Source: Streptomyces virus LukeCage (lineage: Duplodnaviria; Heunggongvirae; Uroviricota; Caudoviricetes). Taken from it: a DNA stretch of 10,077 nt. The position numbers and the translations under genes are program-made. Positions 58 through 9,890 of the stretch are shown one piece after another. The DNA lies in IMG/VR virus record IMGVR_UViG_2974629454_000001, positions 123,119 through 133,195 of that record; one strand, given 5' to 3'. Position 1 is the first letter of the stretch. Every line of letters starts with the position of its first letter. The notes beneath the pieces are model-generated. The model was given only the letters and a program-made list of their open reading frames with translations. It was not told where the DNA came from and made no database searches.

Positions 58-143
58 AGTAGTCAGAGAGCACACTGTTGAGTTGATCAAGAACAGATCA
101 TCCAAGGCTTCGGGCTTTCGCCTTCCCCCTTGCTGATAGCTCA

Positions 144-173
144 AGTCTAACAGAGTCTAGGGTGTTGTGTCTA
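144..173 (-). promoter_or_regulatory. Cassette promoter
   Basis: TAGACA-18-TAGACT on minus strand with extended TGn; no RBS-led ORF found downstream before the next promoter. Confidence 0.65.
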
Positions 174-187
174 CATGGTTCAAGGGA

Positions 188-229
188 GATCATTTCGCCG
201 GGGCGGCTTGTGGCCCCCGAAGGGGCCAC
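188..229 (-). repeat. Boundary element 1 (A-tract, dyad core 197-207, UUCG hairpin 210-229)
   Basis: + strand gatcatttc GCCGGGGCGGC tt GTGGCCCC-cgaa-GGGGCCAC. Confidence 0.9.
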
Positions 230-235
230 CGCTAA

Positions 236-628
236 TTAGGGAATCATCCCCAGAGGTTCGAACGTTCCGATAATCTCGGAATCCTTCACCGCCGCCACAG
301 ACTGATAGGTACCGGGTCGCACCTCAGACTTAGTGTCGTAGGCGACGACCATGTAACCAGCGTCGTCCAGGTCATAGCCGAAGTCATCGAACCATTCGGC
401 CACCTGCTCAGGAGACGTGAGAACACAGAACTCATTGGGCATGATACCGCCCGGCACATCGGTCCACGGCGTGGGGTGCGTCTCGTCGGTGTGCTCACGG
501 CACAGACGGTTGGAAACGGACTTCACCTGCGGGTCGAAAGAGTCGAAACCCTCTCGATACGGACCGGCCCACTTACCCGTACGGTTGCCCTCATGCGTCG
601 GGGGAAGGGCAACACGGTAAACGATCAC
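236..628 (-). CDS. Hypothetical phage protein, 130 aa
   Basis: GTG start, AGGAGGAA RBS at 638-631, own promoter, TAA just upstream of hairpin 1. Confidence 0.85.
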   Translation of the reverse strand: MIVYRVALPPTHEGNRTGKWAGPYREGFDSFDPQVKSVSNRLCREHTDETHPTPWTDVPGGIMPNEFCVLTSPEQVAEWFDDFGYDLDDAGYMVVAYDTKSEVRPGTYQSVAAVKDSEIIGTFEPLGMIP

Positions 629-661
629 GTTTCCTCCTAGGTTTCCCTGGTTGGTAGTCCT

Positions 662-691
662 AGTCTAACGTAGTGTCAGCAGAGATCGCAA
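662..691 (-). promoter_or_regulatory. Cassette promoter
   Basis: TTGCGA-18-TAGACT. Confidence 0.75.
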
Positions 692-701
692 CACAATCAA
701 C

Positions 702-735
702 CATGATCTTTTGACCGGGGCGGCCCGAAGGCCGC
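702..735 (-). repeat. Boundary element 2 (core 714-724 overlapping hairpin 720-735)
   Basis: catgatcttttg ACCGGGGCGGC, stem GCGGCC-cgaa-GGCCGC. Confidence 0.9.
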
Positions 736-739
736 TGTG

Positions 740-1087
740 TCAAGTGCCCATACGAATGATCATCTGTTCGATGATGAACCGGCACACAGAAGCTCGGTTG
801 TATTCGTCGTCATTGCGCGTAGTACCCGCAGCTTCCTTGGCAGCCATTGCGTTAATGATTCCGATAGCCAGATCGAACAGAGGCTTTTGCAATTCCTCAT
901 GCTGGCTACACATCAGATACGCAAGGGTGTGAGCGTTGAATGTACGCTTATCGAGTACAGAGAGAATCTTGTCGGCATCCTTTTCCGCCGCGCTCCGCCG
1001 TGTAGACGTAGTACGTGCGCCCTGATAGACATCAGGAGCAATTACCGAAACCTCTGCCAGACGAAAGATATCGCCATTGCGTGCCAT
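740..1087 (-). CDS. Hypothetical phage protein, 115 aa
   Basis: ATG with GGAGG RBS (1096-1092); last gene of the Lsr2 operon; stop next to element 2. Confidence 0.85.
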   Translation of the reverse strand: MARNGDIFRLAEVSVIAPDVYQGARTTSTRRSAAEKDADKILSVLDKRTFNAHTLAYLMCSQHEELQKPLFDLAIGIINAMAAKEAAGTTRNDDEYNRASVCRFIIEQMIIRMGT

Positions 1088-1102
1088 TGTGCCTCCAATG
1101 GA

Positions 1103-1124
1103 ACGGCCCCCTTTCGGGGGCCGT
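1103..1124 (-). other. Intercistronic 9-bp stem-loop with GAAA tetraloop
   Basis: ACGGCCCCC-GAAA-GGGGGCCGT on minus strand; no U-tract; no promoter follows. Confidence 0.75.
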
Positions 1125-1128
1125 AGCC

Positions 1129-1290
1129 TTACTTGGGTTCGAAGTCTTGCGTATTCCCATATCCATCAGTTACGCTGACAGACATACCGAGTACCGTTGC
1201 CAGGAAGGGGCCGAGAGCTTGGATCATGCTCCATGCCTGGTCTTCCTGGTCATCTCCATTGGGCTCGATTTCGAGCATCACGTTAGGCAT
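1129..1290 (-). CDS. Small acidic hypothetical protein, 53 aa (MPNVMLEIEPNGDDQEDQAWSMIQALGPFLATVLGMSVSVTDGYGNTQDFEPK)
   Basis: Translated by hand; fills the gap between the lsr2 stop and the hairpin; AAGG RBS; not in ORF track. Confidence 0.75.
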   Translation of the reverse strand: MPNVMLEIEPNGDDQEDQAWSMIQALGPFLATVLGMSVSVTDGYGNTQDFEPK

Positions 1291-1299
1291 AGGTCTACC

Positions 1300-1812
1300 T
1301 TACTTGACCTTGACCTCTACGTCAAGACCCAGCACCACCGGGCTGCCGCAGGAACAGTGAGACAGGCTGTAACCGCACTTGCACGCCTCACGCTCGTTGA
1401 AGCGCCACACCTTGCCCTTACGGTCGACGGCCACGTACTCCGTGTTACGGCCACGGGTAGCAGGCGCAGCCGGGCGAACGTCCTTACCGGTGGTCACCTT
1501 CACACCGGTAACAGCCGCAGCCTTGACATCCGGATTGGCCTTTGCGTACGCCTCCAGGATCTCACCGGAGATACGGCCACGGGAGTTGATCTCGATACCG
1601 TTGGCCTTAGCCCACGTGCGAACCTTCTTAGCGTCGTAGGCACCAGCCTTGACAGCAGCGGGCTTGTTGGTACGCACCACGCCAGTGTCAGCGAAGACGG
1701 TACCCGCAGCCTCAGCAGCCTTGATCGCCTCGTTTGCTGCCACACTCATTCGACCACGCTTGCCCATCTCAGCGAGACCGAGGGAAGCGGCGTACTCACG
1801 GCGAGTCTGCAT
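1300..1812 (-). CDS. lsr2: Lsr2-like DNA-binding protein with two RGR-type domains and a Cys-rich C-terminus, 170 aa
   Basis: KKVRTWAKANGIEINSRGRISGEILEAYAKAN matches the Lsr2 C-terminal AT-hook-like domain; own promoter and RBS. Confidence 0.85.
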   Translation of the reverse strand: MQTRREYAASLGLAEMGKRGRMSVAANEAIKAAEAAGTVFADTGVVRTNKPAAVKAGAYDAKKVRTWAKANGIEINSRGRISGEILEAYAKANPDVKAAAVTGVKVTTGKDVRPAAPATRGRNTEYVAVDRKGKVWRFNEREACKCGYSLSHCSCGSPVVLGLDVEVKVK

Positions 1813-1845
1813 TTGGTTCCTTCCGTTGTCCTTCGTTGTACCTTA

Positions 1846-1874
1846 AGCATAACAGAGCAAGGGGGACGGGGCAA
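1846..1874 (-). promoter_or_regulatory. Cassette promoter (lsr2 operon)
   Basis: TTGCCC-17-TATGCT, extended TGn. Confidence 0.75.
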
Positions 1875-1899
1875 CATGAAATTATGTCCGGTTTGTCTC

Positions 1900-1919
1900 G
1901 CCGCCCCGGCCCGAAGGCC
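1900..1919 (-). repeat. Boundary element 3 (core 1900-1910 with flipped centre, hairpin 1908-1919)
   Basis: GCCGCCCCGGC, stem GGCC-cgaa-GGCC. Confidence 0.85.
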
Positions 1920-1923
1920 CGCA

Positions 1924-2646
1924 CTATTTCTTAGTGCGAGAGAACCGGATATCAGCCTTACCGAAGATACACAGGCCGCACGTTACGCACGCGCCACCCT
2001 TTTCGGTAATCAGAGGAATCTGCTTAGCATTCTCGGGACACTTTCCACCGGGAACACCAGTCAGAGTTTCGAAGATCTCTTTGCCCTCGTTGAAGGTTTC
2101 TCCCAGATATGCCATTTTGACACCGGGATTGTCAGCCGCGCAAAGAAGCCCGGCGTTAAGGTTTTCCTTGTCTACACTAAGGTAGACAGCCATGTTGGGG
2201 AATCCGTAGATGCATTCCACGTACTGGAATGAACGGGTGTAAATCCAGAATTGCACATCAGGGTGGTGATAGACCACATAGTTGATGGCAATTGCATATT
2301 CCTCGGAGAAGATATCCCCGTCAGCGTGCCAACGGAAATACTTAGGCACGTTGTACTTTTCGCACTCCGCCTCGAATTCATCGATCATCTGCGTCAGGAG
2401 CTTGACCATTACGCCATAAGGCGCATCCTTAAGCAATTCCCAGTTGTGCATAGCAACAGCAAGGAATGCGGGATACTGCTTTTCGATCCTACCGGCATAG
2501 CAGATGCTCTCACATACACCGGTCGCACCGGGACAAGAGAACGCCTTACCGGACGGCAGAGAGAATGCGTTTTTGATGAGCGACTGCTTACCCGCAGTGT
2601 TGGCTCGGACGGTGGTCTTGCGGTCGTTCGTTCGCTTGAGTCCCAT
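1924..2646 (-). CDS. GP88-like phage protein, probable Fe-S / radical-SAM-like, 240 aa; probably leaderless
   Basis: CPGATGVCESICYA, FRWHADGDIFS and C-terminal CVTCGLC motifs recalled from the phage GP88 family; ATG 6 nt after the -10, no RBS. Confidence 0.75.
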   Translation of the reverse strand: MGLKRTNDRKTTVRANTAGKQSLIKNAFSLPSGKAFSCPGATGVCESICYAGRIEKQYPAFLAVAMHNWELLKDAPYGVMVKLLTQMIDEFEAECEKYNVPKYFRWHADGDIFSEEYAIAINYVVYHHPDVQFWIYTRSFQYVECIYGFPNMAVYLSVDKENLNAGLLCAADNPGVKMAYLGETFNEGKEIFETLTGVPGGKCPENAKQIPLITEKGGACVTCGLCIFGKADIRFSRTKK

Positions 2647-2652
2647 GGATTC

Positions 2653-2681
2653 ATCCTAGCAGACGTAAGAGAGAGAATCAA
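2653..2681 (-). promoter_or_regulatory. Cassette promoter (leaderless)
   Basis: TTGATT-17-TAGGAT, extended TGn. Confidence 0.7.
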
Positions 2682-2692
2682 CATGCTTGAGT

Positions 2693-2745
2693 CAAGATCT
2701 TTTGACCGCCCCGGCCAAACGGCCCCCGAAGGGGCCGTTGGCTTT
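2693..2745 (-). repeat. Boundary element 4 (core 2705-2715 with flipped centre, hairpin 2718-2739)
   Basis: caagatcttttg ACCGCCCCGGC ca AACGGCCCC-cgaa-GGGGCCGTT. Confidence 0.9.
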
Positions 2746-2749
2746 CTGA

Positions 2750-2914
2750 TTACTTGGGAGCGACCTCGAAGTCGTCCAGGCCGAGCGCGATGGTCTCGAA
2801 CTCGGTACCCATGTTGTCGGTCATCTCGGCGACGATGTTGCGAACGAGGGCGACACGCACGGTGGCGGTCATGGGGGTCTCGGCGATGACCTTGGCGATG
2901 GCGAGAGCCTTCAT
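2750..2914 (-). CDS. Small hypothetical protein, 54 aa (MKALAIAKVIAETPMTATVRVALVRNIVAEMTDNMGTEFETIALGLDDFEVAPK)
   Basis: Hand translation; GAAAGG RBS; own promoter; not in ORF track. Confidence 0.8.
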   Translation of the reverse strand: MKALAIAKVIAETPMTATVRVALVRNIVAEMTDNMGTEFETIALGLDDFEVAPK

Positions 2915-2943
2915 TTTGGAGCCTTTCGTCGTGGTGTGTTCTT

Positions 2944-2972
2944 AGTCTAGCGGATGGAACTTGGTTTGTCTA
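2944..2972 (-). promoter_or_regulatory. Promoter without dyad/hairpin
   Basis: TAGACA-17-TAGACT; the -35 TAG is the stop codon of the upstream 32-aa ORF. Confidence 0.7.
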
Positions 2973-3068
2973 CTCGCAGTCGACCAGAATTTCCATGTCG
3001 TCCAGGTGAGCGTCGGCACCGTAGGTGTCGTCCTGCTCGTCCTCAATCTTGGCAAGGGTGACAGCCAT
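2970..3068 (-). CDS. Very acidic micropeptide, 32 aa (MAVTLAKIEDEQDDTYGADAHLDDMEILVDCE)
   Basis: Hand translation; GAGGTGG RBS; own promoter at 3113-3142. Confidence 0.7.
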   Translation of the reverse strand: MAVTLAKIEDEQDDTYGADAHLDDMEILVDCE

Positions 3069-3112
3069 CTCAACCACCTCTCTGGGAGGTTTCCCTCCCT
3101 TTCGATGTCTCT

Positions 3113-3142
3113 AGTCTAACAGACGTAAGCGATGATGTACAA
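3113..3142 (-). promoter_or_regulatory. Cassette promoter
   Basis: TTGTAC-18-TAGACT, extended TGn; leader hairpin GGGAGG-GAAA-CCTCCC at 3099-3084. Confidence 0.75.
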
Positions 3143-3153
3143 CGGGTTCTCAG

Positions 3154-3194
3154 CATGATCTTTTGACCGGGGCGGTTCGCGCCCCGAAGGGCGC
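3154..3194 (-). repeat. Boundary element 5 (core 3166-3176, hairpin 3179-3194)
   Basis: catgatcttttg ACCGGGGCGGT tc GCGCCC-cgaa-GGGCGC. Confidence 0.9.
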
Positions 3195-3200
3195 TAGCCG

Positions 3201-3695
3201 TTAGCGAGGGTTACAGATTCCGCAGTCCCAGCCACAACCGTAACTGTCGTAGCTGTAGCTGTTCTCGTAGCTCAGACGCGCAGCCTCTTCGGCCTTCTCG
3301 ATCTTCTTGACCTCCGCGTCGATCATGTCCTTCGCGTCCTTGAGGCTGAGGAACGGGAAGTCGTTGCGGAGACGCTTGATGCACGTGATCTTGTAGAGCT
3401 TGCCGATCTCCTTGACGATCTTCGGAGCGGCCTCACGCGCCTGGTTGTAAGCGAAGTCCTCGATTCCACGCAGACGAACCAGCTCGCTCTTTTCGAGCGT
3501 CAGACCCTCGTTCTTGAGCTGGATCTGACCCGCGACCTTACCGGCCTCGTACCCGTCCGTGTAGCTCTTGTCGGATGCCGCGAGAAGGGTCATGTCGTGG
3601 TAGTTCTTGATCCTGTCAGCCACGTCCATGGCCTGCGTGAAGCCCATCTCCACACCCTCGTCGAGGAAGATCTTCAAAACGTCCAGGGCGTCCAT
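3201..3695 (-). CDS. Hypothetical protein with bL12 (L7/L12) C-terminal-domain-like motif, 164 aa
   Basis: YKITCIKRLRNDFPFLSLKDAKDMID resembles bL12 KIxVIKxVRxxxxLGLKEAKDLVD; own promoter and RBS. Confidence 0.8.
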   Translation of the reverse strand: MDALDVLKIFLDEGVEMGFTQAMDVADRIKNYHDMTLLAASDKSYTDGYEAGKVAGQIQLKNEGLTLEKSELVRLRGIEDFAYNQAREAAPKIVKEIGKLYKITCIKRLRNDFPFLSLKDAKDMIDAEVKKIEKAEEAARLSYENSYSYDSYGCGWDCGICNPR

Positions 3696-3736
3696 GTGTT
3701 CCTCTCTTAGAGGGAGTGTCCCTCTTTGATGTCTCT

Positions 3737-3766
3737 ACTATAGCAAGGAAAGGGGACCGGATGCAA
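3737..3766 (-). promoter_or_regulatory. Cassette promoter
   Basis: TTGCAT-18-TATAGT. Confidence 0.75.
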
Positions 3767-3777
3767 CACAGTCCACG

Positions 3778-3822
3778 AAGATCTTTTCGCCGGGGCGGCT
3801 AGGCCGCCCGAAGGCGGCCCGC
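3778..3822 (-). repeat. Boundary element 6 (core 3789-3799, hairpin 3802-3819)
   Basis: aagatcttttc GCCGGGGCGGC ta GGCCGCC-cgaa-GGCGGCC. Confidence 0.9.
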
Positions 3823-3825
3823 TGC

Positions 3826-4014
3826 TCAGTATGCGATGTTGAGCTGGAGGTGATCCACCTTCTCGAAGTTGATCACATGGACACCACCGTCAGTGCTCTC
3901 GATGAGAGCGACCTTACTGTACAGCTTCTCCTGAACGGCTTCCACGTTACCCTTCGCACGGAACTTGACGGGCTGGTCGCGGTCGCTGTAGTAGACGGTG
4001 ACGTGAGTGTTCAC
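3826..4014 (-). CDS. Hypothetical protein, 62 aa
   Basis: GTG start, GGGAGG RBS, own promoter. Confidence 0.8.
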   Translation of the reverse strand: MNTHVTVYYSDRDQPVKFRAKGNVEAVQEKLYSKVALIESTDGGVHVINFEKVDHLQLNIAY

Positions 4015-4042
4015 TTTGCCTCCCGGCCTCGTTGATAGCTCT

Positions 4043-4071
4043 AGTCTACATGAACAGAGTCAGGATTACAA
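4043..4071 (-). promoter_or_regulatory. Cassette promoter
   Basis: TTGTAA-17-TAGACT. Confidence 0.75.
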
Positions 4072-4077
4072 CCCCGA

Positions 4078-4108
4078 ACCGGGGCGGCTAGAGGGGCCGA
4101 AGCCCCTC
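4078..4108 (-). repeat. Boundary element 7 (core 4078-4088, hairpin 4091-4108; A-tract missing)
   Basis: ACCGGGGCGGC ta GAGGGGC-cgaa-GCCCCTC; only 6 bp from the -35. Confidence 0.9.
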
Positions 4109-4115
4109 CGCCTTT

Positions 4116-4469
4116 CTACCGACGACCCATGGGAAAACCCTTACGCGCTGCCTCCCTTTCCAGCTCCCATCCGTTGTTCGTCTCGCTGGGGTGAACGTAT
4201 TCGATTTCCTTGATGCCCAGCAGATAGGCGACGAGCAGACGGTGATGACCGTTGGTCACACGGTTACGCTCAGGGCTGTACACGATGGGCGTTTTGATGC
4301 CTTCCTTCTCGATGCTCTCGATGAACGCACGGGGCAGCTCATCGAACTTAGCGAGCATGCACTTTTCCTTGTCGTCCATGTAGCGGGAACCGTAGTTGCC
4401 CGTACGAGAGTCGGAAGCGTCTCCGAAGATCGCATCGTGCCAGAGCTTTTCCACGTTCGCCTGGGGCAT
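4116..4469 (-). CDS. ParB/Srx-like nuclease-domain protein, about 117 aa
   Basis: IESIEKEGIKTPIV...VTNGHHRLLVAYLLG is a ParB N-terminal signature; ATG at 4469 preferred over GTG at 4475 because GGAG lies upstream of it. Confidence 0.8.
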   Translation of the reverse strand: MPQANVEKLWHDAIFGDASDSRTGNYGSRYMDDKEKCMLAKFDELPRAFIESIEKEGIKTPIVYSPERNRVTNGHHRLLVAYLLGIKEIEYVHPSETNNGWELEREAARKGFPMGRR

Positions 4470-4505
4470 CTTCACTCCAAGTTTTCTCGCCCTGTTGGTA
4501 GTTAT

Positions 4506-4535
4506 AGTCTAACGGATGATGTGATGGGGAGTCAA
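4506..4535 (-). promoter_or_regulatory. Cassette promoter
   Basis: TTGACT-18-TAGACT. Confidence 0.8.
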
Positions 4536-4545
4536 CTCAACCCAT

Positions 4546-4590
4546 CAAGATTTTTAGCCGGGGCGGCTAGGCCGCCCGAAGGCGGCCCGC
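4546..4590 (-). repeat. Boundary element 8 (core 4557-4567, hairpin 4570-4587)
   Basis: caagattttta GCCGGGGCGGC ta GGCCGCC-cgaa-GGCGGCC; 34 bp identical to element 6. Confidence 0.9.
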
Positions 4591-4595
4591 CATGA

Positions 4596-4739
4596 TCAGA
4601 CCCAGTTCCAGCCGAGGTGAAGAAGGGCACCGACGATCATGATCAGAAAGGCACTGACACCAGCATTGACGAGAAAGAGCAGAACAGCCTGCGGGCCGGT
4701 GCAGTTGGAAGCGGTGATCGGACCCTTGACGTTGTACAT
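4596..4739 (-). CDS. Small membrane protein, 47 aa (MYNVKGPITASNCTGPQAVLLFLVNAGVSAFLIMIVGALLHLGWNWV)
   Basis: Hand translation; AGGAG RBS; long hydrophobic segment. Confidence 0.75.
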   Translation of the reverse strand: MYNVKGPITASNCTGPQAVLLFLVNAGVSAFLIMIVGALLHLGWNWV

Positions 4740-4746
4740 GTCACTC

Positions 4747-4863
4747 CTAGAGAAAGGCGAAGAGCACAGTCTTTGCTGTCCACAAGCCTAGCATAAGTAG
4801 GCCGATCAGGAAAGGTATGAGAACTAGTAGTCCTGCACACCCGACGATCTTTATCAGACCCAC
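4747..4863 (-). CDS. Small membrane protein, about 38 aa (MGLIKIVGCAGLLVLIPFLIGLLMLGLWTAKTVLFAFL)
   Basis: Hand translation; fills the operon gap; GTG start overlaps upstream gene; no clear RBS, so the start is uncertain. Confidence 0.55.
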   Translation of the reverse strand: MGLIKIVGCAGLLVLIPFLIGLLMLGLWTAKTVLFAFL

Positions 4864-5012
4864 TCAAGGGGGTCGTAGTCGAAGATGTCACGGTGATCAC
4901 GGTAGCGATCTGCACGCTGCCTCTTGATCTCACCGAGCTTCTTGATTTCCTTGACGCGCTTGGTCTGCGCCAGGTATCGCTCGTTCCGCAGCCTACGAAG
5001 ATCTTCTCGCAT
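4854..5012 (-). CDS. Small basic protein, 52 aa (MREDLRRLRNERYLAQTKRVKEIKKLGEIKRQRADRYRDHRDIFDYDPLEWV)
   Basis: Hand translation; GAAGGG RBS; own promoter. Confidence 0.8.
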   Translation of the reverse strand: MREDLRRLRNERYLAQTKRVKEIKKLGEIKRQRADRYRDHRDIFDYDPLEWV

Positions 5013-5035
5013 TTCGTTCCCTTCGTTGTGTCTCT

Positions 5036-5065
5036 AGTATATACAGAGGTGGGAGGGAAGCGCAA
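5036..5065 (-). promoter_or_regulatory. Cassette promoter
   Basis: TTGCGC-18-TATACT. Confidence 0.75.
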
Positions 5066-5075
5066 CATAGATCTT

Positions 5076-5117
5076 CAAGATCTTTTCGCCGGGGCGGCTT
5101 GCGCCCCGAAGGGCGCA
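5076..5117 (-). repeat. Boundary element 9 (core 5088-5098, hairpin 5100-5117)
   Basis: caagatcttttc GCCGGGGCGGC t TGCGCCC-cgaa-GGGCGCA. Confidence 0.9.
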
Positions 5118-5123
5118 GCCTTA

Positions 5124-5462
5124 TCAGTCTCGGATGTTCATGACCTCACGGTAGAACCGAAGGTAGGCATCCGCAGCGTCCTCGGCATCCTCCAAAGACT
5201 CGTAGTCACCGAATCCGTCAAGAGTGGTCATGGTGAACGCTCCCTCTTCGTTGCGGGAAGCGTAGCGGAGGCTGTACGACTTGTCTTCCGGGTCCGATCG
5301 GTATTCGGAAGTGATGAAGATCGATCCGCGCTGACCGATGGGGAAAACGTTCGGCTGGAGTTCCGTGTTGAAGAACTCCATAGACCCCTTCGTGAACCAG
5401 TGTCGGGCGGTGGAGTTGGACTCACGGGACGCCTTGACGATCTGGTGCATCGTGGAGAACAT
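5124..5462 (-). CDS. Hypothetical phage protein, 112 aa
   Basis: ATG, GAGAGG RBS, own promoter, double stop; the HWF..GSMEFFN...FITSE pattern resembles a recurrent uncharacterised phage family (from memory, unverified). Confidence 0.85.
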   Translation of the reverse strand: MFSTMHQIVKASRESNSTARHWFTKGSMEFFNTELQPNVFPIGQRGSIFITSEYRSDPEDKSYSLRYASRNEEGAFTMTTLDGFGDYESLEDAEDAADAYLRFYREVMNIRD

Positions 5463-5490
5463 TTACGTTCCTCTCGCTCGGTGTAAGACG

Positions 5491-5520
5491 AGTCTAACAC
5501 ACTCATAGGACAGAACACAA
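5491..5520 (-). promoter_or_regulatory. Cassette promoter
   Basis: TTGTGT-18-TAGACT, extended TGn. Confidence 0.75.
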
Positions 5521-5536
5521 GCCCTCTAGCAAATCA

Positions 5537-5568
5537 GCCGGGGCGGCCAAACGGCCCCCGAAGGGGCC
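5537..5568 (-). repeat. Boundary element 10 (core 5537-5547, hairpin 5553-5568)
   Basis: GCCGGGGCGGC caaac GGCCCC-cgaa-GGGGCC. Confidence 0.9.
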
Positions 5569-5574
5569 AGATGA

Positions 5575-5685
5575 CTAGCGACCTTGCTTCAAGATCGCAT
5601 CGATGCCATAGAGGAGAATGATTCCCAGTCCGATGGTGTATGAACCGCTGATTACCGAGAGGTACAGAATCATGATCGCTTCCAT
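5575..5685 (-). CDS. Small membrane peptide, 36 aa (MEAIMILYLSVISGSYTIGLGIILLYGIDAILKQGR)
   Basis: Hand translation; ATG overlaps the upstream TGA (TGATG coupling). Confidence 0.7.
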   Translation of the reverse strand: MEAIMILYLSVISGSYTIGLGIILLYGIDAILKQGR

Positions 5686-5951
5686 CAGAGAACCGGCTTC
5701 TTGCCGAGTCCCATGCTCTTGCCGAAGTCGTAGGACTTGCCCTTGACCTCGTATCCCGGAAGAACCTTGGTCACACGGAACGGAGCGGCACGGTGGAGGG
5801 CGGACAGCTTCTCAGCAGAACCCGCAGCCTCGACGTAGACCTTACCGGAACGCTCGTTGACTCGGTACTCGAACTCCACTCCGTACACGGTGGCCATCGT
5901 GATGACGACACCAGCGCGCTTGACGGAAACCTCGCCCATGAGAACGGCCAT
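5685..5951 (-). CDS. Hypothetical protein, 88 aa
   Basis: ATG, GAAAGG RBS, own promoter. Confidence 0.85.
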   Translation of the reverse strand: MAVLMGEVSVKRAGVVITMATVYGVEFEYRVNERSGKVYVEAAGSAEKLSALHRAAPFRVTKVLPGYEVKGKSYDFGKSMGLGKKPVL

Positions 5952-5979
5952 TGTATTGCCTTTCGTTCGGTGTTACTAG

Positions 5980-6008
5980 AGTCTATCAGATGCGGTGGAC
6001 GTTGTCAC
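5980..6008 (-). promoter_or_regulatory. Promoter embedded in the 3' end of the upstream gene (no dyad/hairpin)
   Basis: GTGACA-17-TAGACT. Confidence 0.65.
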
Positions 6009-6264
6009 GCAGTTCGTTGAACGTGTGCGGACTGGTGACGATCTCAGCGTTGCGGTAAAACCCGTGATCCACAAGGACCGTTACCGAGTTATACACAACG
6101 TTCTGTACCGTTCCAGTGTACGCGATCTTGCCGTCAATTTCAAGGCCCTCGTTCAGATAAAGCTGAGCCCAACTGTTGACGACTACGACCCTGTCACCCG
6201 TACGGAGCTTGCCGAAGTTGCTTTGCAGATACTTGCGAATCCTGTAGCTGAGAGGCATCGCCAT
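5986..6264 (-). CDS. Hypothetical protein, 92 aa
   Basis: ATG, GAAGGGGAG RBS, own promoter. Confidence 0.8.
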   Translation of the reverse strand: MAMPLSYRIRKYLQSNFGKLRTGDRVVVVNSWAQLYLNEGLEIDGKIAYTGTVQNVVYNSVTVLVDHGFYRNAEIVTSPHTFNELRDNVHRI

Positions 6265-6287
6265 GATCTCTCCCCTTCGTTAAGACG

Positions 6288-6316
6288 AGTCTACATGACG
6301 CCGGGCGAGATTGCAA
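6288..6316 (-). promoter_or_regulatory. Cassette promoter
   Basis: TTGCAA-17-TAGACT. Confidence 0.8.
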
Positions 6317-6330
6317 CACTTTTTCAAAAA

Positions 6331-6372
6331 AGCCGGGGCGGCCAAACGGCCCCCGAAGGGGCCGTTGGCTTT
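6331..6372 (-). repeat. Boundary element 11 (core 6332-6342, hairpin 6345-6366)
   Basis: GCCGGGGCGGC ca AACGGCCCC-cgaa-GGGGCCGTT. Confidence 0.9.
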
Positions 6373-6374
6373 GA

Positions 6375-6947
6375 TCAGCCGTTCATGCCGCATCCGCACG
6401 GGCAAGAACCCTGGAAGGACTCTTCGGAGGACTCGATGGACTCGCGGGCCACGTCGTTCGTCGTCAGCTTCTCACGCAGCGCATTGAGCGCGGACTGAGT
6501 GGCCAACTCGGGCTCGGGCTTCGGGGAGTCCTTCTCGACCTGCTCGATCTTGTCCCATTCGAGCTGATCGGTGGTCCCGACCGGCGTGATCATGTCCACG
6601 ATGGACTTCGCCTCGATGAGACCCAGCGGACGGAACTTGTCACGCAGAACCTTGATGCAGGTGATCTTGCGGGTGAAGTCACGCGGCGTGAAGTTCGCCA
6701 CGGCCCACGCAGTTGCGGAAACCACGTTCGGGTCGAAGGTGGCACGAATGGAGTTCTTGCCAGCCTCCACACCAGCGTCGTAGCGCTCCTGACCGTACGC
6801 GTACTTCGCGTCCTCGGCCTTGTACTTCTCGTCTTCCATCTTGCGACGGAAGCCACGGTCGATGTCACCCGCGAAGCGGAGAGCGTCAGCGATCTTGGTG
6901 TCGGGGAAGTAGTTGCCGACCTGCTGAACGATCTCGATGCGCTCCAT
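6375..6947 (-). CDS. Hypothetical protein with bL12 (L7/L12) C-terminal-domain-like motif, 190 aa; paralogue of 3201-3695
   Basis: RKITCIKVLRDKFRPLGLIEAKSIVD; GAAGGG RBS; own promoter. Confidence 0.85.
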   Translation of the reverse strand: MERIEIVQQVGNYFPDTKIADALRFAGDIDRGFRRKMEDEKYKAEDAKYAYGQERYDAGVEAGKNSIRATFDPNVVSATAWAVANFTPRDFTRKITCIKVLRDKFRPLGLIEAKSIVDMITPVGTTDQLEWDKIEQVEKDSPKPEPELATQSALNALREKLTTNDVARESIESSEESFQGSCPCGCGMNG

Positions 6948-6995
6948 GAGGTTTCCCTTCGTCTTAGGGGACTTCTTGCCCCCTTCGATGTACTA

Positions 6996-7025
6996 ATCTT
7001 AGCAGAGCCTAGCGGGCTGTGTCCA
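6996..7025 (-). promoter_or_regulatory. Cassette promoter
   Basis: TGGACA-18-TAAGAT, extended TGn. Confidence 0.65.
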
Positions 7026-7035
7026 ACTGTTCTTT

Positions 7036-7076
7036 CAAGATTTTTTGGCCGGGGCGGTTCGCCGCCCGAAGGCGGC
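7036..7076 (-). repeat. Boundary element 12 (core 7048-7058, hairpin 7061-7076)
   Basis: caagattttttg GCCGGGGCGGT tc GCCGCC-cgaa-GGCGGC. Confidence 0.9.
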
Positions 7077-7082
7077 TAGCCG

Positions 7083-7379
7083 TTACTCCCAAGGTGAGTA
7101 GTCAGACTCACGCTCGGCAGGCTTACGCTCGATACGGTCAAGGTAGCGGCCGGTGCTGTTGACGGACCAAATGGCCCTACGCCCGTTGTTGCTGTAACGC
7201 TTCTTGGTCAGCCTCTTGAGAACGGTCTCAGCCTCACGACGAGAGCGAACCTTGACAGACACGCAGGGCTCACGGTAGTTGTAGTACCATCCGCCCTCTT
7301 CCGGACCACCGCACGCGAGGTCTTCGAGATAGATGTTGGCGTAGAACGGCTTGGGCTTACGAACCTTGGGCGTCTTCAT
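7083..7379 (-). CDS. Hypothetical protein with GGPEEGGW motif, 98 aa; probably leaderless
   Basis: The track start TTG at 7415 is the promoter -35; ATG at 7379 lies 7 nt after the TAGACT -10 with no RBS. Confidence 0.8.
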   Translation of the reverse strand: MKTPKVRKPKPFYANIYLEDLACGGPEEGGWYYNYREPCVSVKVRSRREAETVLKRLTKKRYSNNGRRAIWSVNSTGRYLDRIERKPAERESDYSPWE

Positions 7380-7386
7380 AGGGATG

Positions 7387-7415
7387 AGTCTAGCAGAGTA
7401 TTGGGCCGGTGGCAA
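7387..7415 (-). promoter_or_regulatory. Cassette promoter (leaderless)
   Basis: TTGCCA-17-TAGACT, extended TGn. Confidence 0.8.
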
Positions 7416-7430
7416 CAGATTCTCAATTTA

Positions 7431-7452
7431 GCCGGGGCGGCCCCGAAGGGCC
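7431..7452 (-). repeat. Boundary element 13 (core 7431-7441 overlapping hairpin 7439-7452)
   Basis: GCCGGGGCGGC, stem GGCCC-cgaa-GGGCC. Confidence 0.85.
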
Positions 7453-7457
7453 TGACG

Positions 7458-7688
7458 TTACCGCCAGAGGAATTGACCTTGACATGCACAGTCGTTGGGA
7501 ACCTTGTCTACCTTCTTGAAAGCACGAATGATCGTCTCTCGCGGGTAGACAGCTCGCAGGCACTCACGAGGGTTGTGGTGACCTACCTTGATCCACTGGT
7601 CTACGACTTCCACATAGAGGAAAGTCTGTTCGTGTCCGGTCTGCTTCTCTTGCTGAACGTAGACTTCGCCCTCAGAGATCCATTCCAT
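7458..7688 (-). CDS. Hypothetical protein, 76 aa (MEWISEGEVYVQ...)
   Basis: Start revised from 7754 to the ATG at 7688, which overlaps the TGA of the upstream 51-aa gene (TGATG). Confidence 0.75.
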   Translation of the reverse strand: MEWISEGEVYVQQEKQTGHEQTFLYVEVVDQWIKVGHHNPRECLRAVYPRETIIRAFKKVDKVPNDCACQGQFLWR

Positions 7689-7843
7689 CACACACTCCTG
7701 GTCTTGATCTTCTCGCACTTCACGCACTTGCGAACCTGCATGGGCTGAGTCCACGTGACAGGCTTACCCTTGATCCAACCCATAAGAGGGCTGTCCATGT
7801 GAGCAGTGACGAGAACCCACTTCGTCCACTTGTGACGGCACAT
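7688..7843 (-). CDS. Small putative Zn-binding protein, 51 aa (MCRHKWTKWVLVTAHMDSPLMGWIKGKPVTWTQPMQVRKCVKCEKIKTRSV)
   Basis: Hand translation; CxH...CxxC; TAATG and TGATG overlaps on both sides; not in ORF track. Confidence 0.75.
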   Translation of the reverse strand: MCRHKWTKWVLVTAHMDSPLMGWIKGKPVTWTQPMQVRKCVKCEKIKTRSV

Positions 7844-8046
7844 TACGAAAGCCTCCCACAGATGCACTTGATCTTGTCGCCGGGTTCCATGTACGTCTCG
7901 ATGGTGTACTGCGGGATCATCATCGTGGTGCAGTCGTCGTCGCTCGTGTGGATCACGATGAACGCCTGATCACTGATCAGATCGATGATCTCCGTGCGGC
8001 AGTTCGGGTCGGACTTCTTCGGCTGCATGATGTCTCCGGGCTTCAT
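7843..8046 (-). CDS. Hypothetical protein, 67 aa; probably leaderless
   Basis: ATG 6 nt after the TAGACT -10; first gene of a translationally coupled three-gene operon. Confidence 0.75.
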   Translation of the reverse strand: MKPGDIMQPKKSDPNCRTEIIDLISDQAFIVIHTSDDDCTTMMIPQYTIETYMEPGDKIKCICGRLS

Positions 8047-8052
8047 GTATGA

Positions 8053-8082
8053 AGTCTAGCACTCGGATTGGATGAGATGCAA
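8053..8082 (-). promoter_or_regulatory. Cassette promoter (leaderless)
   Basis: TTGCAT-18-TAGACT, extended TGn. Confidence 0.75.
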
Positions 8083-8095
8083 GCCCTACGCCGAT

Positions 8096-8160
8096 TTTTT
8101 AGTCTCTAGATGTCTACACAGATTTTTAGTCATCTAGCCGGGGCGGCTAACTTTTTAGTC
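8096..8160. repeat. Dyad core 14 (TAGCCG-GGG-CGGCTA, 8135-8149) without hairpin, among three TTTTTAGTC copies
   Basis: TTTTTAGTC at 8096-8104, 8123-8131 and 8152-8160. Confidence 0.75.
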
Positions 8161-8245
8161 AGAAAATCACCCCTATGATTCGAAGGTTTTTCGCGCATAT
8201 ACCTAAGAAACACAGGGGTGAAAATCTAAGCGAATTTATTCAGAT

Positions 8246-9116: not shown

Positions 9117-9228
9117 CCTAGATCCTCCGGGAAATTTTTGTACGCTTTCGTACACGCGCGGGGGATTTGTCCGGGAATTCCGTAATGCCCTCTTAAAGAG
9201 GAATGCCCCCTATGCGCTGCATGCCCAG

Positions 9229-9302
9229 TGTGTACCCATATGGTAGGGTATGTACCCTATGTACCATATGCCCTATATGTACCCCTATGTACCAGTATGT
9301 CC
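9229..9302. repeat. Degenerate tandem micro-repeat TATGTACC (4 exact, about 3 degenerate)
   Basis: Exact at 9249, 9258, 9276, 9286; variants at 9229, 9267, 9296. Confidence 0.85.
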
Positions 9303-9312
9303 GATTTGTCCG

Positions 9313-9323
9313 GCCGCCCCGGT
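9313..9323 (+). repeat. Dyad core 15 (GCCG-CCC-CGGT) upstream of the rightward gene
   Basis: Matches RCCG-SSS-CGGY; CCC on the sense strand, as in most leftward cassettes. Confidence 0.7.
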
Positions 9324-9390
9324 CGGCAATCCTTTACCAAGCCGTTACCTAAAAACCTCGGATTCAGGGGTTTTCCCGTGTGTGGTGGGG

Positions 9391-9431: not shown

Positions 9432-9890
9432 ATGATCACCACCACCGCCCCGGTTACCCACAACAGCAACACTCACCAGTGCAGGGACAACGACCGTACG
9501 GCCGGTAGCGCGTACCGTAGGCAGCTTCTCGCTACGGTCCTGTACCTGGCTAGCCTTACGGGGCACTCGGACGGTGAGACGTACGCTGTGTGTGTGGGTT
9601 GTGGTGAGAATGCATACGTGGGGGGTGCACCCCGGAACATGGACACGCTGAACCTTGGTCACTGTGAGGCAGACGCAACGGGGGGTACCTACTGCGCTGC
9701 GAACATGCTCCCCCTGTGCAGGCAGTGCAACGAGGACATGGGTAAGGATGCCCTTACCGATGTGCTTGTCCCCCTGTATGACAACCGTCACATGTGGGAC
9801 GGTAAGTTGATCAAGGACAGTGGCAAGGTTAAGCAGGAAGCGCAGGCAAACCGAGGACGTGCCAACTGGAAGCGCCCTGCGAGCGTCTGA
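9432..9890 (+). CDS. HNH endonuclease, 152 aa
   Basis: CVGCG zinc knuckle plus LGHCEADATGGTYCAANMLPLCRQCNEDMG (H...N...CxxCN); ATG at 9432 with AAGGGAG RBS preferred over track start 9228. Confidence 0.8.
   Translation: MITTTAPVTHNSNTHQCRDNDRTAGSAYRRQLLATVLYLASLTGHSDGETYAVCVGCGENAYVGGAPRNMDTLNLGHCEADATGGTYCAANMLPLCRQCNEDMGKDALTDVLVPLYDNRHMWDGKLIKDSGKVKQEAQANRGRANWKRPASV

Follow-up and report, generated by a model that had tools for sequence, protein, structure and literature searches.

Palindrome-marked gene cassettes in the terminal repeat of Streptomyces virus LukeCage

Streptomyces virus LukeCage has a genome of 133,195 bp, with a direct terminal repeat (DTR) of 12,291 bp found at 1-12291 and recurring exactly at 120905-133195, and a unique region of 108.6 kb. 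The stretch analysed here, called the window below, is 10,077 nucleotides long (record IMGVR_UViG_2974629454_000001, positions 123,119 to 133,195). It corresponds to DTR bases 2215-12291, and its right edge coincides with the inner edge of the DTR. Within it lies an array of small gene cassettes, and the boundaries between these cassettes carry a common module that includes an 11-bp palindrome, RCCGSSSCGGY, here called the dyad. In this genome the dyad is exclusive to the DTR. It is invariant, while the hairpin next to it covaries; a second genus of related phages has its own version of it; and where relatives have gained or lost whole cassettes, the junctions lie inside it.

The reading put forward here, to which we give a slightly better than even chance, is that the array is a pre-early host-takeover region made of autonomous cassettes, with the dyad as a protein-read boundary site and as the point of crossover. 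A stable UNCG or GNRA tetraloop hairpin would close the upstream mRNA, forming or stabilising its 3' end, probably as a leaky terminator. The palindrome that comes next would be read as double-stranded DNA by a sequence-specific factor and would mark the cassette boundary, after which an A/T-rich UP-like tract, an extended -10 promoter of sigma-HrdB type, a leader and a strong Shine-Dalgarno site would launch the next gene. Homology-driven recombination between two dyads could then delete or insert whole cassettes that are ready to be expressed, in a way that resembles the promoter-early stem-loop (PeSL) cassettes of T4-type phages (PMC2839356, PMC4122927).

The module and its dyad

The module is about 115 nt long and is found on the minus (coding) strand at 13 boundaries in the window and at 14 in the DTR. 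Its order is stop codon, tetraloop hairpin, dyad, A/T tract, promoter, leader and Shine-Dalgarno site. The original prediction had described an ordered series of hairpin, dyad, tract and promoter at 13 boundaries, and both coding-strand reading and alignment bear this out; the unit is longer than was proposed, since it continues through the leader and the Shine-Dalgarno site. The MAFFT consensus of the 14 DTR modules reads hairpin, GCCGCCCCGGc, AAAaGATC, about 10 nt, tGTTGnnn, 17 nt, TCTGnTAGACT and aGAgaCATCgAAGGG. Hairpins are present at all 13 window boundaries as predicted, but that of the module at 1900 has only 4 bp and overlaps the dyad. The A-tract that had been called usual is of the AAAAGATC type in about nine of the 13 modules, the remainder having T-rich or CGGACA-repeat tracts. 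The leader is conserved and ends in GAAGGG or GGAGG, followed by an ATG or GTG start codon. When a profile of the module is run with nhmmer, the best match in the unique region has an E-value of only 0.005, and 13-15 modules are found in each of five relatives. The matches within the DTR are the training copies of the profile, and what is informative is the absence elsewhere.

In the window there are 16 dyads versus 0.10 expected, confirming the enrichment first noticed there, and none of 200 shuffles reaches this number. Each DTR copy holds 18 dyads and the 108.6-kb unique region holds none. The nearest relatives of the window, 80-89% identical, are Streptomyces phages of cluster BE2 (Karimacvirus), in agreement with the actinophage origin that had been proposed, and the best megablast match is StarPlatinum with 89% identity over the aligned part. 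Five such relatives have 32-43 dyads per genome, versus 0-1 occurrences of a reversed control pattern. All dyads of StarPlatinum (36) and Karimac (38) lie in the DTRs; in each of the other three the total agrees with two copies of the DTR, with one or two sites just past the DTR in Yaboi and Wofford. The centre of the dyad is invariably CCC or GGG, and the core CCG-(CCC/GGG)-CGG is identical in all 109 copies of the six genomes, which points to recognition of the sequence. The dyad is tied to the hairpin, with a gap of 1-4 nt or an overlap of 3-6 nt, and not to the promoter, as its distance to the -10 box varies from 29 to 48 nt (mode 45-48). Where the two overlap, in 2-4 modules of each genome, it is the 3' arm of the hairpin that is involved; because bases are shared in these cases, both cannot fold at once. 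Dyads without a hairpin cap the two ends of the array, at genome position 754 and at window position 8137, the latter being a fourteenth, hairpin-less dyad that had already been reported correctly.

The hairpin behaves differently from the dyad. In the six genomes, 73 hairpins adjacent to dyads comprise 34 distinct sequences. They were selected by a rule of four or more pairs, which does not impose stem positions 5 and 6, and these positions are paired in 97% and 85% of cases. Stem positions 2-6 swap between CG and GC, and when the 3' arms are shuffled none of 1000 trials reaches the observed pairing. As an example of compensatory change between orthologous hairpins, GCCGCC/GGCGGC in this phage corresponds to GCGCCC/GGGCGC in StarPlatinum. 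Such covariation of the stem indicates selection on the RNA. UUCG is the usual loop, and UCCG, UACG, GAAA and GCAA are rarer ones; all five are extra-stable RNA tetraloops. A canonical intrinsic terminator has a GC-rich hairpin directly followed by a U-tract, and most DTR hairpins depart from this, the dyad occupying the place of the U-tract. A U-tract is missing after 10 of the 14 DTR hairpins, whereas UUCG hairpins in the unique region have U-tracts. Because most copies are without one, the DTR hairpins are probably leaky terminators, stabilisers of 3' ends, or both. Rfam covariance models gave no match at E<=1 on either strand of the window.

The predicted promoter has the consensus GTTGnnn-17-TGnTAGACT, with a GTTG -35 box and an extended -10 box, in all 14 modules, and it fits the vegetative pattern of Streptomyces (TTGnnn, TANNNT), which would make it sigma-HrdB-like. 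TTG-17/18-TAGACT occurs nine times on the DTR coding strand versus six times in the whole unique region, making it about 13-fold denser in the DTR. A TAGACT box had been counted in 11 of 18 promoters, and this agrees with the 12 found on the minus strand of the window, two of which are in one module. Together with strong Shine-Dalgarno sites and stable tetraloop hairpins, these predicted promoters support the anatomy of a self-contained expression unit that had been suggested for the cassettes.

Phages of cluster BE1 (Samistivirus) offer a second version of the same arrangement. RCCGSSSCGGY was not found in the DTRs of NootNoot, Jay2Jay and Lululemon. These DTRs have the same architecture, with a UUCG hairpin that abuts a longer palindrome, TGTC(C/G)G-N3-C(C/G)GACA, of which the outer TGTC/GACA arms are fixed and the centre is variable. 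CGGACA, an arm of this BE1 dyad, is about 7-fold enriched in BE1 DTRs; it was also tried as an enriched half-site in LukeCage and rejected, as it shows no enrichment in this genome. The leftmost site of the array, which has neither hairpin nor promoter, lies between flanks conserved between the genera (GGGACCTTTCAAT ... CTTAGCCTAACTAAC), and at this orthologous site BE2 genomes have the BE2 dyad and BE1 genomes the BE1 dyad. All copies have thus changed together. Judged from these sequences, a joint switch is how binding sites behave when they co-evolve with a trans-acting reader, and it would be hard to reconcile with a functionless relic. Byblos, a more distant phage that shares a GP88-family gene, has no such array.

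Gain and loss of cassettes

For six BE2 genomes, the DTR was divided at its modules and the resulting segments were clustered by tblastx. LukeCage has about 15 leftward cassettes, each with its own predicted promoter, in the order A B C D E F G H I J K L M N O, and StarPlatinum has the same set. Karimac begins A P B C; Yaboi reads A P B C D E I' F G I and continues without H; Wofford reads A Q B C D E F I, is without G and H, and ends N R O; and in Enygma H is absent. Comparison of 13 genomes shows eight events in which whole cassettes were gained or lost, and in every one the junction falls within the dyad. The events concern P, Q, I', H, G+H, R, a deletion of P+B+C in Birchlyn, and the BE1 cassette f. 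At base level, the junction in every event consists of the hairpin of the upstream gene, the dyad, and the promoter of the downstream gene. Birchlyn is a clear example. Its D|A boundary matches the D|C boundary of Karimac up to CCGCCCCGGTCA and the P|A boundary of Karimac from there on, which makes it a recent deletion that removed three cassettes (2.15 kb) by a crossover within 12 shared bases. In the BE1 event, cassette f of Jay2Jay is bounded by BE1 dyads.

The dyad is the only stretch that is identical in all modules, and for this reason dyad-to-dyad recombination is the route by which whole cassettes would move. The genome has a RecA-like gene; tyrosine recombinases (PF00589), serine recombinases or resolvases (PF00239) and RecT are absent from the whole genome, which favours general recombination over an integron-like mechanism. 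The original prediction had pictured a platform for the exchange and reordering of genes at the modules. Gain and loss of whole cassettes does occur exactly there, but shared cassettes keep one and the same order across the six BE2 genomes, with no case of reordering, and several insertions, deletions and breakpoints lie elsewhere, as described below. Yaboi has an extra ParB/Srx-like cassette at 5294-5683, between E and F. Its identity is about 35% with the resident ParB-like gene and about 40% with the BE1 copies, which occupy this same position in BE1 phages; a capture of this cassette across genera is possible from these identities.

Possible readers of the dyad

The invariance of the dyad, its palindromic form, its exclusivity to the DTR and its replacement by another palindrome in the other genus argue for recognition as double-stranded DNA, by a putative dimeric factor. 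Several observations weigh against the combined reading of a protein-read boundary and crossover site. The first is that no candidate with a sequence-specific DNA-binding fold emerged when the DTR proteins and those of the neighbouring leftward block were searched with Pfam, PHROG and Atlas; neither a helix-turn-helix nor a ribbon-helix-helix protein was found in this set by the Pfam and PHROG scans. The proteins considered as readers were only Lsr2, which binds AT-rich DNA, a ParB/Srx-like protein without helix-turn-helix, a Dps/ferritin-like protein and an HNH endonuclease, and none was retained. Secondly, about 46-64 bp separate the centre of the dyad from the inferred transcription start downstream of it, with three different spacings, and this is not the classical position of an operator. 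The description of the dyad as operator-like is therefore probably wrong, as the dyad also abuts the hairpin of the upstream gene and coincides with the crossover. Thirdly, the coding strand reads CCC at 14 of the 18 DTR dyads, a shared orientation that an RNA role or simple descent by duplication would explain as well. As to timing, contigs from four rhizosphere metatranscriptome runs (Logan) cover many DTR genes at at least 99% identity. These contigs carry no strand, ends, levels or timing; some of them bridge modules and some stop nearby, and they were not used for transcript ends. What they show is that the DTR region is present in RNA libraries.

The remaining points concern the crossover. 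At least four changes at the level of genes are found inside operons, away from modules: a 36-amino-acid gene at window 5577-5687 that is not in StarPlatinum, a 59-amino-acid gene at 7688-7867, gp9 of Wofford, and two genes of operon O that are swapped in order relative to Karimac. In a sliding-window comparison of identity, mosaic breakpoints occur in genes and at modules alike, and sharp identity steps were for this reason rejected as a signature of the module. The modules are thus not the only points of exchange. In addition, almost all of the space from hairpin to promoter is taken up by the dyad, which for most pairs of modules is also the longest stretch of exact identity, so homology-driven recombination would place the junctions there anyway.

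A more specific form of the protein reading is distinctly unlikely in our estimate. In this form the 16-18 boundary palindromes would be the binding sites of a phage protein, with a matched pair of protein and site in each of BE1 and BE2, and this protein would both control the entire pre-early class together and actively promote cassette exchange. Control could be by shut-off, by insulation or by coupling to a stepwise entry of the DNA, and the exchange would amount to an integron-like capture of genes without a known recombinase family.

Among the alternatives, an RNA element fares best, and we consider it unlikely. Here the dyad would be a second small hairpin (GCCG-CCC-CGGC), either part of a tandem-hairpin terminator or a signal for processing or stabilisation, with no DNA-binding protein involved. 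It lies 1-4 nt past the main hairpin in most modules and takes the position that the U-tract has in a canonical terminator, RNAfold pairs its arms in about half of the modules, and the shared CCC orientation mentioned above points the same way. What such a second hairpin leads one to expect is covariation, and 109 dyads show none, in contrast to the hairpin alongside, whose stem pairs interchange readily. An A.C mismatch is common at the outer R-Y position, 2-4 modules of each genome have bases that belong both to the dyad and to the 3' arm of the main hairpin, and at both ends of the array the dyad stands without a hairpin. The BE1 palindrome, with its fixed TGTC/GACA arms and variable centre, also has the form of a protein site.

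A reader from the host is very unlikely. It would be a Streptomyces DNA-binding protein, a nuclease or a restriction-type enzyme, for which the dyad is a decoy, a protection site or a regulatory site. The confinement of the dyad to the DTR agrees with this, as the DTR is likely the first part of the genome to enter, by analogy with T5 (10.1101/866236), and so does the lack of a phage-encoded reader among the DTR proteins and the adjacent leftward block. The strict avoidance of GCCGGC, CCGCGG and CCCGGG can likewise be taken as pressure from host enzymes that read such sites. However, S. griseus and S. lividans are hosts to phages of both BE1 and BE2, which differ in the dyad; this makes a host reader less likely, and the literature search found no host factor with the dyad as its site.

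The dyad could also be a dedicated site for site-specific recombination, in an integron-like array with a putative recombinase, and this we hold to be highly improbable. The eight indel junctions do fall within at most 14 bp at the dyad and not in the equally conserved -10 box and leader; bare dyads are found at both array ends; the centre is flipped at some sites; and the HNH endonuclease gene of the DTR has a dyad in its first codons. Against this, neither a tyrosine nor a serine recombinase is encoded, the site has only 11 bp with arms of 4 bp, each cassette has a promoter of its own, and the order is fixed among relatives. Homology-driven crossover, for which a RecA-like gene is present, explains the junctions in view of the length of the exact match at the dyad. 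The last alternative, a dyad without function that is kept by descent and gene conversion among duplicated modules in an array of ordinary terminators and promoters, is similarly improbable: identical hairpin and dyad blocks do recur (genome 4919, 7751 and 8546, and another at 6003 and 6771), two paralogous cassettes have common 3' ends and recombination among relatives is frequent, but the dyads stay invariant where adjacent hairpins, spacers and promoter-upstream sequences diverge within and between genomes, occur also outside any module, have switched together between BE1 and BE2 down to orthologous single sites, and are absent from 108 kb that hold similar hairpins and promoters.

The array in detail and comparison with known systems

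The minus strand carries every gene from 236 to about 9114 of the window. The cassette genes are about 22 small leftward open reading frames (236-8046, minus strand), mostly ORFans, and the modules between them are given here from left to right in window coordinates, all on the minus strand. Module 1 (C|B, 118-231) has its hairpin at 210-229 and dyad at 197-207, scores 73 bits with nhmmer, and contains two TAGACT -10 boxes that end at 149 and 159. In Module 2 (D|C, 635-739) the hairpin at 720-735 overlaps the dyad at 714-724 by 5 nt, followed by a CAAAAGATC tract and a TAGACT at 662-667. Between a 115-amino-acid and a 53-amino-acid gene, at 1096-1125 on the same strand, there is a hairpin only (GGCCCCC-UUUC-GGGGGCC), without dyad or promoter, so hairpin and dyad are separable elements. 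Module 3 (E|D, 1821-1922) has a weak 4-bp UUCG hairpin and a flipped dyad at 1900-1910 with GGG on the coding strand; a CGGACA-repeat tract replaces the A-tract and the -10 box is TATGCT. Together with 9300-9330 it forms a second subtype of the module, in which the coding-strand GGG dyad is followed by two CGGACA/GAGACA half-sites 9 bp apart and AAAAGATC is missing. Module 4 (F|E, 2629-2740) has a hairpin at 2718-2739, a flipped dyad at 2705-2715, a CAAAAGATC tract and a TAGGAT -10 box. An internal promoter without hairpin or dyad, TAGACA-17-TAGACT, lies at 2944-2972 (minus strand) between two small genes of cassette F.

Module 5 (G|F, 3084-3194), where the G+H deletion of Wofford has its junction, contains a hairpin at 3179-3194, a dyad at 3166-3176 and a TAGACT at 3113-3118. 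The junction of the H deletion of Enygma and Yaboi is in Module 6 (H|G, 3706-3824; hairpin 3802-3819, dyad 3789-3799, -10 box TATAGT). Module 7 (I|H, 4014-4114; hairpin 4091-4108, dyad 4078-4088) is a short form without A-tract, with TAGACT at 4043-4048. Next come Module 8 (J|I, 4477-4593; hairpin 4570-4587, dyad 4557-4567, TAGACT at 4506-4511), Module 9 (K|J, 5008-5119; hairpin 5100-5117, dyad 5088-5098, -10 box TATACT) and Module 10 (L|K, 5461-5568; hairpin 5553-5568, dyad 5537-5547, TAGACT at 5491-5496). A second internal promoter without hairpin or dyad, GTGACA-17-TAGACT, is found inside cassette L at 5980-6008 (minus strand). In Module 11 (M|L, 6263-6367; hairpin 6345-6366) the dyad at 6332-6342 is followed by TTTTTT, and TAGACT is at 6288-6293. 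Module 12 (N|M, 6970-7082) has a hairpin at 7061-7076, a dyad at 7048-7058 and a TAAGAT -10 box, and in Module 13 (O|N, 7359-7466) the hairpin at 7439-7452 overlaps the dyad at 7431-7441, with TAGACT at 7387-7392.

The upstream end of the array (8096-8161, minus strand) has a bare dyad at 8137-8147 with three GACTAAAAA(T/A) repeats 27-29 bp apart around it, and just downstream of this dyad is the promoter of operon O, with TAGACT at 8053-8058 on the minus strand. BE1 phages have GACTAAAAATCT repeats at the place equivalent to 8096-8161. Further to the right, a dyad of the Module 3 subtype at 9313-9323 adjoins CGGACAAATCGGACAT upstream of the rightmost leftward genes, and another at 9444-9454 lies within the first codons of the HNH endonuclease gene (9432-9890), the only plus-strand gene noted in the window. 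Between the leftward genes and the HNH gene, at 9228-9330, there are 9-bp-spaced repeats of the TATGTACC type, followed by GTCCGATTTGTCCG and the dyad. Left of the window, the DTR has a full module with hairpin, dyad and promoter at genome 1170 and the bare dyad at genome 754.

A few of the cassette genes, all on the minus strand, were assigned to families by Pfam and PHROG scans. An Lsr2-like gene lies at 1300-1812, and on sequence similarity it alone hints at action on the host nucleoid. The GP88-family gene (PF17338, 1924-2646) has homologues of 42-46% identity in cluster A mycobacteriophages, and both dyads that bound its cassette have a flipped centre, a flip that is kept in most relatives. 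The same scans gave a DUF7447 gene at 5124-5462, and a ParB/Srx-like gene, with a domain that has no helix-turn-helix, lies at 4116-4475. Two phrog_5819 paralogues, in cassettes G and M (3201-3695 and 6375-6947), show weak matches to the C-terminal domain of ribosomal protein L7/L12 and have common 3' ends (TAACGGCTAG) and the same type of hairpin. The protein of cassette G is only 40-57% identical to its counterparts in relatives, and the flanking DNA is 85-95% identical. Three tiny hydrophobic reading frames of 47, about 39 and 36 amino acids (4596-4860 and 5577-5687) look like membrane peptides, and the 36-amino-acid one at 5577-5687 is missing in Karimac as well as in StarPlatinum. Rhizosphere metagenomes and metatranscriptomes of several studies hold sequence at least 99% identical to window 100-8200. 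GCCGGC, CCGCGG and CCCGGG do not occur anywhere in the genome, where the expectation is about 20 for the unique region and about 5 for the DTR, and CGCG is depleted genome-wide (136 versus 347 expected); the missing GC-rich 6-bp palindromes and the CGCG depletion look like an avoidance of restriction sites. The dyad itself was considered as a restriction site and this idea was dropped: it fits just the loose BglI pattern GCCN5GGC, and counts of CCGG and CCSGG are unremarkable.

To our knowledge, cluster BE phages (more than 80 sequenced genomes) have the longest terminal repeats known in actinophages, and nearly all genes of these repeats are annotated without function. Uniform, portable cassettes, if they hold every gene, would allow direct annotation of the pre-early transcription units. 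The region also represents a set of compact parts, with predicted strong promoters, leaders and hairpins, for engineering in Streptomyces. Cassette exchange would explain how genes for host takeover and counter-defence are traded, with recombination at an 11-bp site always yielding an expressible gene. A dyad that is exclusive to the DTR and specific to the genus is a sharply defined target for finding its reader, which may reveal how the first temporal class is switched off; for T5, this shut-off is still an open question (PMC7472727).

Several known systems share some of these features. The array is not an integron. No IntI-type tyrosine recombinase is found (PF00589 and PF00239 are absent genome-wide), and each cassette has its own promoter and an 11-bp site, in contrast to promoterless cassettes with an attC of 57-141 bp and one Pc promoter. 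Stoperators of cluster A mycobacteriophages are 13-bp asymmetric sites that occur genome-wide and, in these temperate phages, bind the immunity repressor. They too are many copies of one short site in the intergenic gaps of actinophages, near stop codons and promoters, while the dyad is palindromic, confined to the DTR, and found in a lytic phage without known repressor.

In T5, the repeat holds a separate first temporal class of genes that is read by the unmodified host RNA polymerase (10.1101/866236; PMC7472727). The genomes are alike in layout, with a siphovirus of about 120-130 kb and a DTR of 10-12 kb making up 8-9% of the genome (10.1101/866236; PMC7472727), and a repeat-rich non-coding region is found at the inner border of the terminal repeat in both. 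Two-step DNA entry is a feature of T5 and for BE phages an analogy only; pre-early units of T5 are not described as uniform cassettes with a boundary dyad, and there is no homology. SPO1 has a host-takeover module in a 12.4-kb terminal region, where about 26 small early genes are provided with strong promoters and ribosome-binding sites (PMC6873191), and the likeness lies in a terminal region of about 12 kb that is dense with small genes in many short operons with host-type promoters (PMC6873191). LukeCage agrees with both T5 and SPO1 in being a large lytic phage with a terminal repeat of about 10-13 kb (12,291 bp in a genome of 133,195 bp) that holds many small genes in short operons, with predicted host-type promoters and ribosome-binding sites. 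It differs from SPO1 in that there is no sequence homology, and host shutoff has been demonstrated for SPO1 and would be a predicted role here. We know of no repeated boundary palindrome described for SPO1. The genome announcement of a BE1 phage likens the DTR to those of T5 and SPO1 and is silent on repeated modules (PMC5764925).

A literature search found no description of this module or dyad, and a search for the literal dyad sequence gave only unrelated eukaryotic and viral primers. A scan of viral contigs for TTCGG-N4-14-GCCGCCCCGG was set aside as uninformative, the matches listed being mostly single chance ones in GC-rich contigs. The closest parallel is the PeSL cassette, to which the array had been linked from the start. 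In both, the small, non-essential ORFans of a plastic region, early in T4-type phages and predicted to be so here, are separated by copies of a composite of promoter, stem-loop and Shine-Dalgarno site, with the Shine-Dalgarno site and start codon at the 3' end of the motif. Where close relatives differ by an insertion, deletion or replacement, the junction lies in the motif (eight whole-cassette events here, with some other indels elsewhere), and recombination between neighbouring copies removes the DNA between them, a process that in PeSLs yields mini-circles. The mode of exchange is thus similar, but the stem-loop of a PeSL is placed between or over the -35 and -10 boxes (PMC2839356), whereas here it is the 3' hairpin of the upstream gene, about 60-75 nt before the -10 box, with its end 1-4 nt ahead of the dyad and about 40-60 nt from that box. 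Since the stem-loop lies outside the promoter, the module is an analogue of PeSL and not the same element. PeSLs also have no separate invariant palindrome, and in LukeCage and its relatives the crossover is at the palindrome and not in an AT-rich or -10/Shine-Dalgarno part; the host is an actinobacterium, the phage is a siphovirus, and the array is confined to the terminal repeat. Portable expression cassettes as such are already known from PeSL, and what is new here is the DTR-exclusive boundary dyad with its cassettes of hairpin and promoter.

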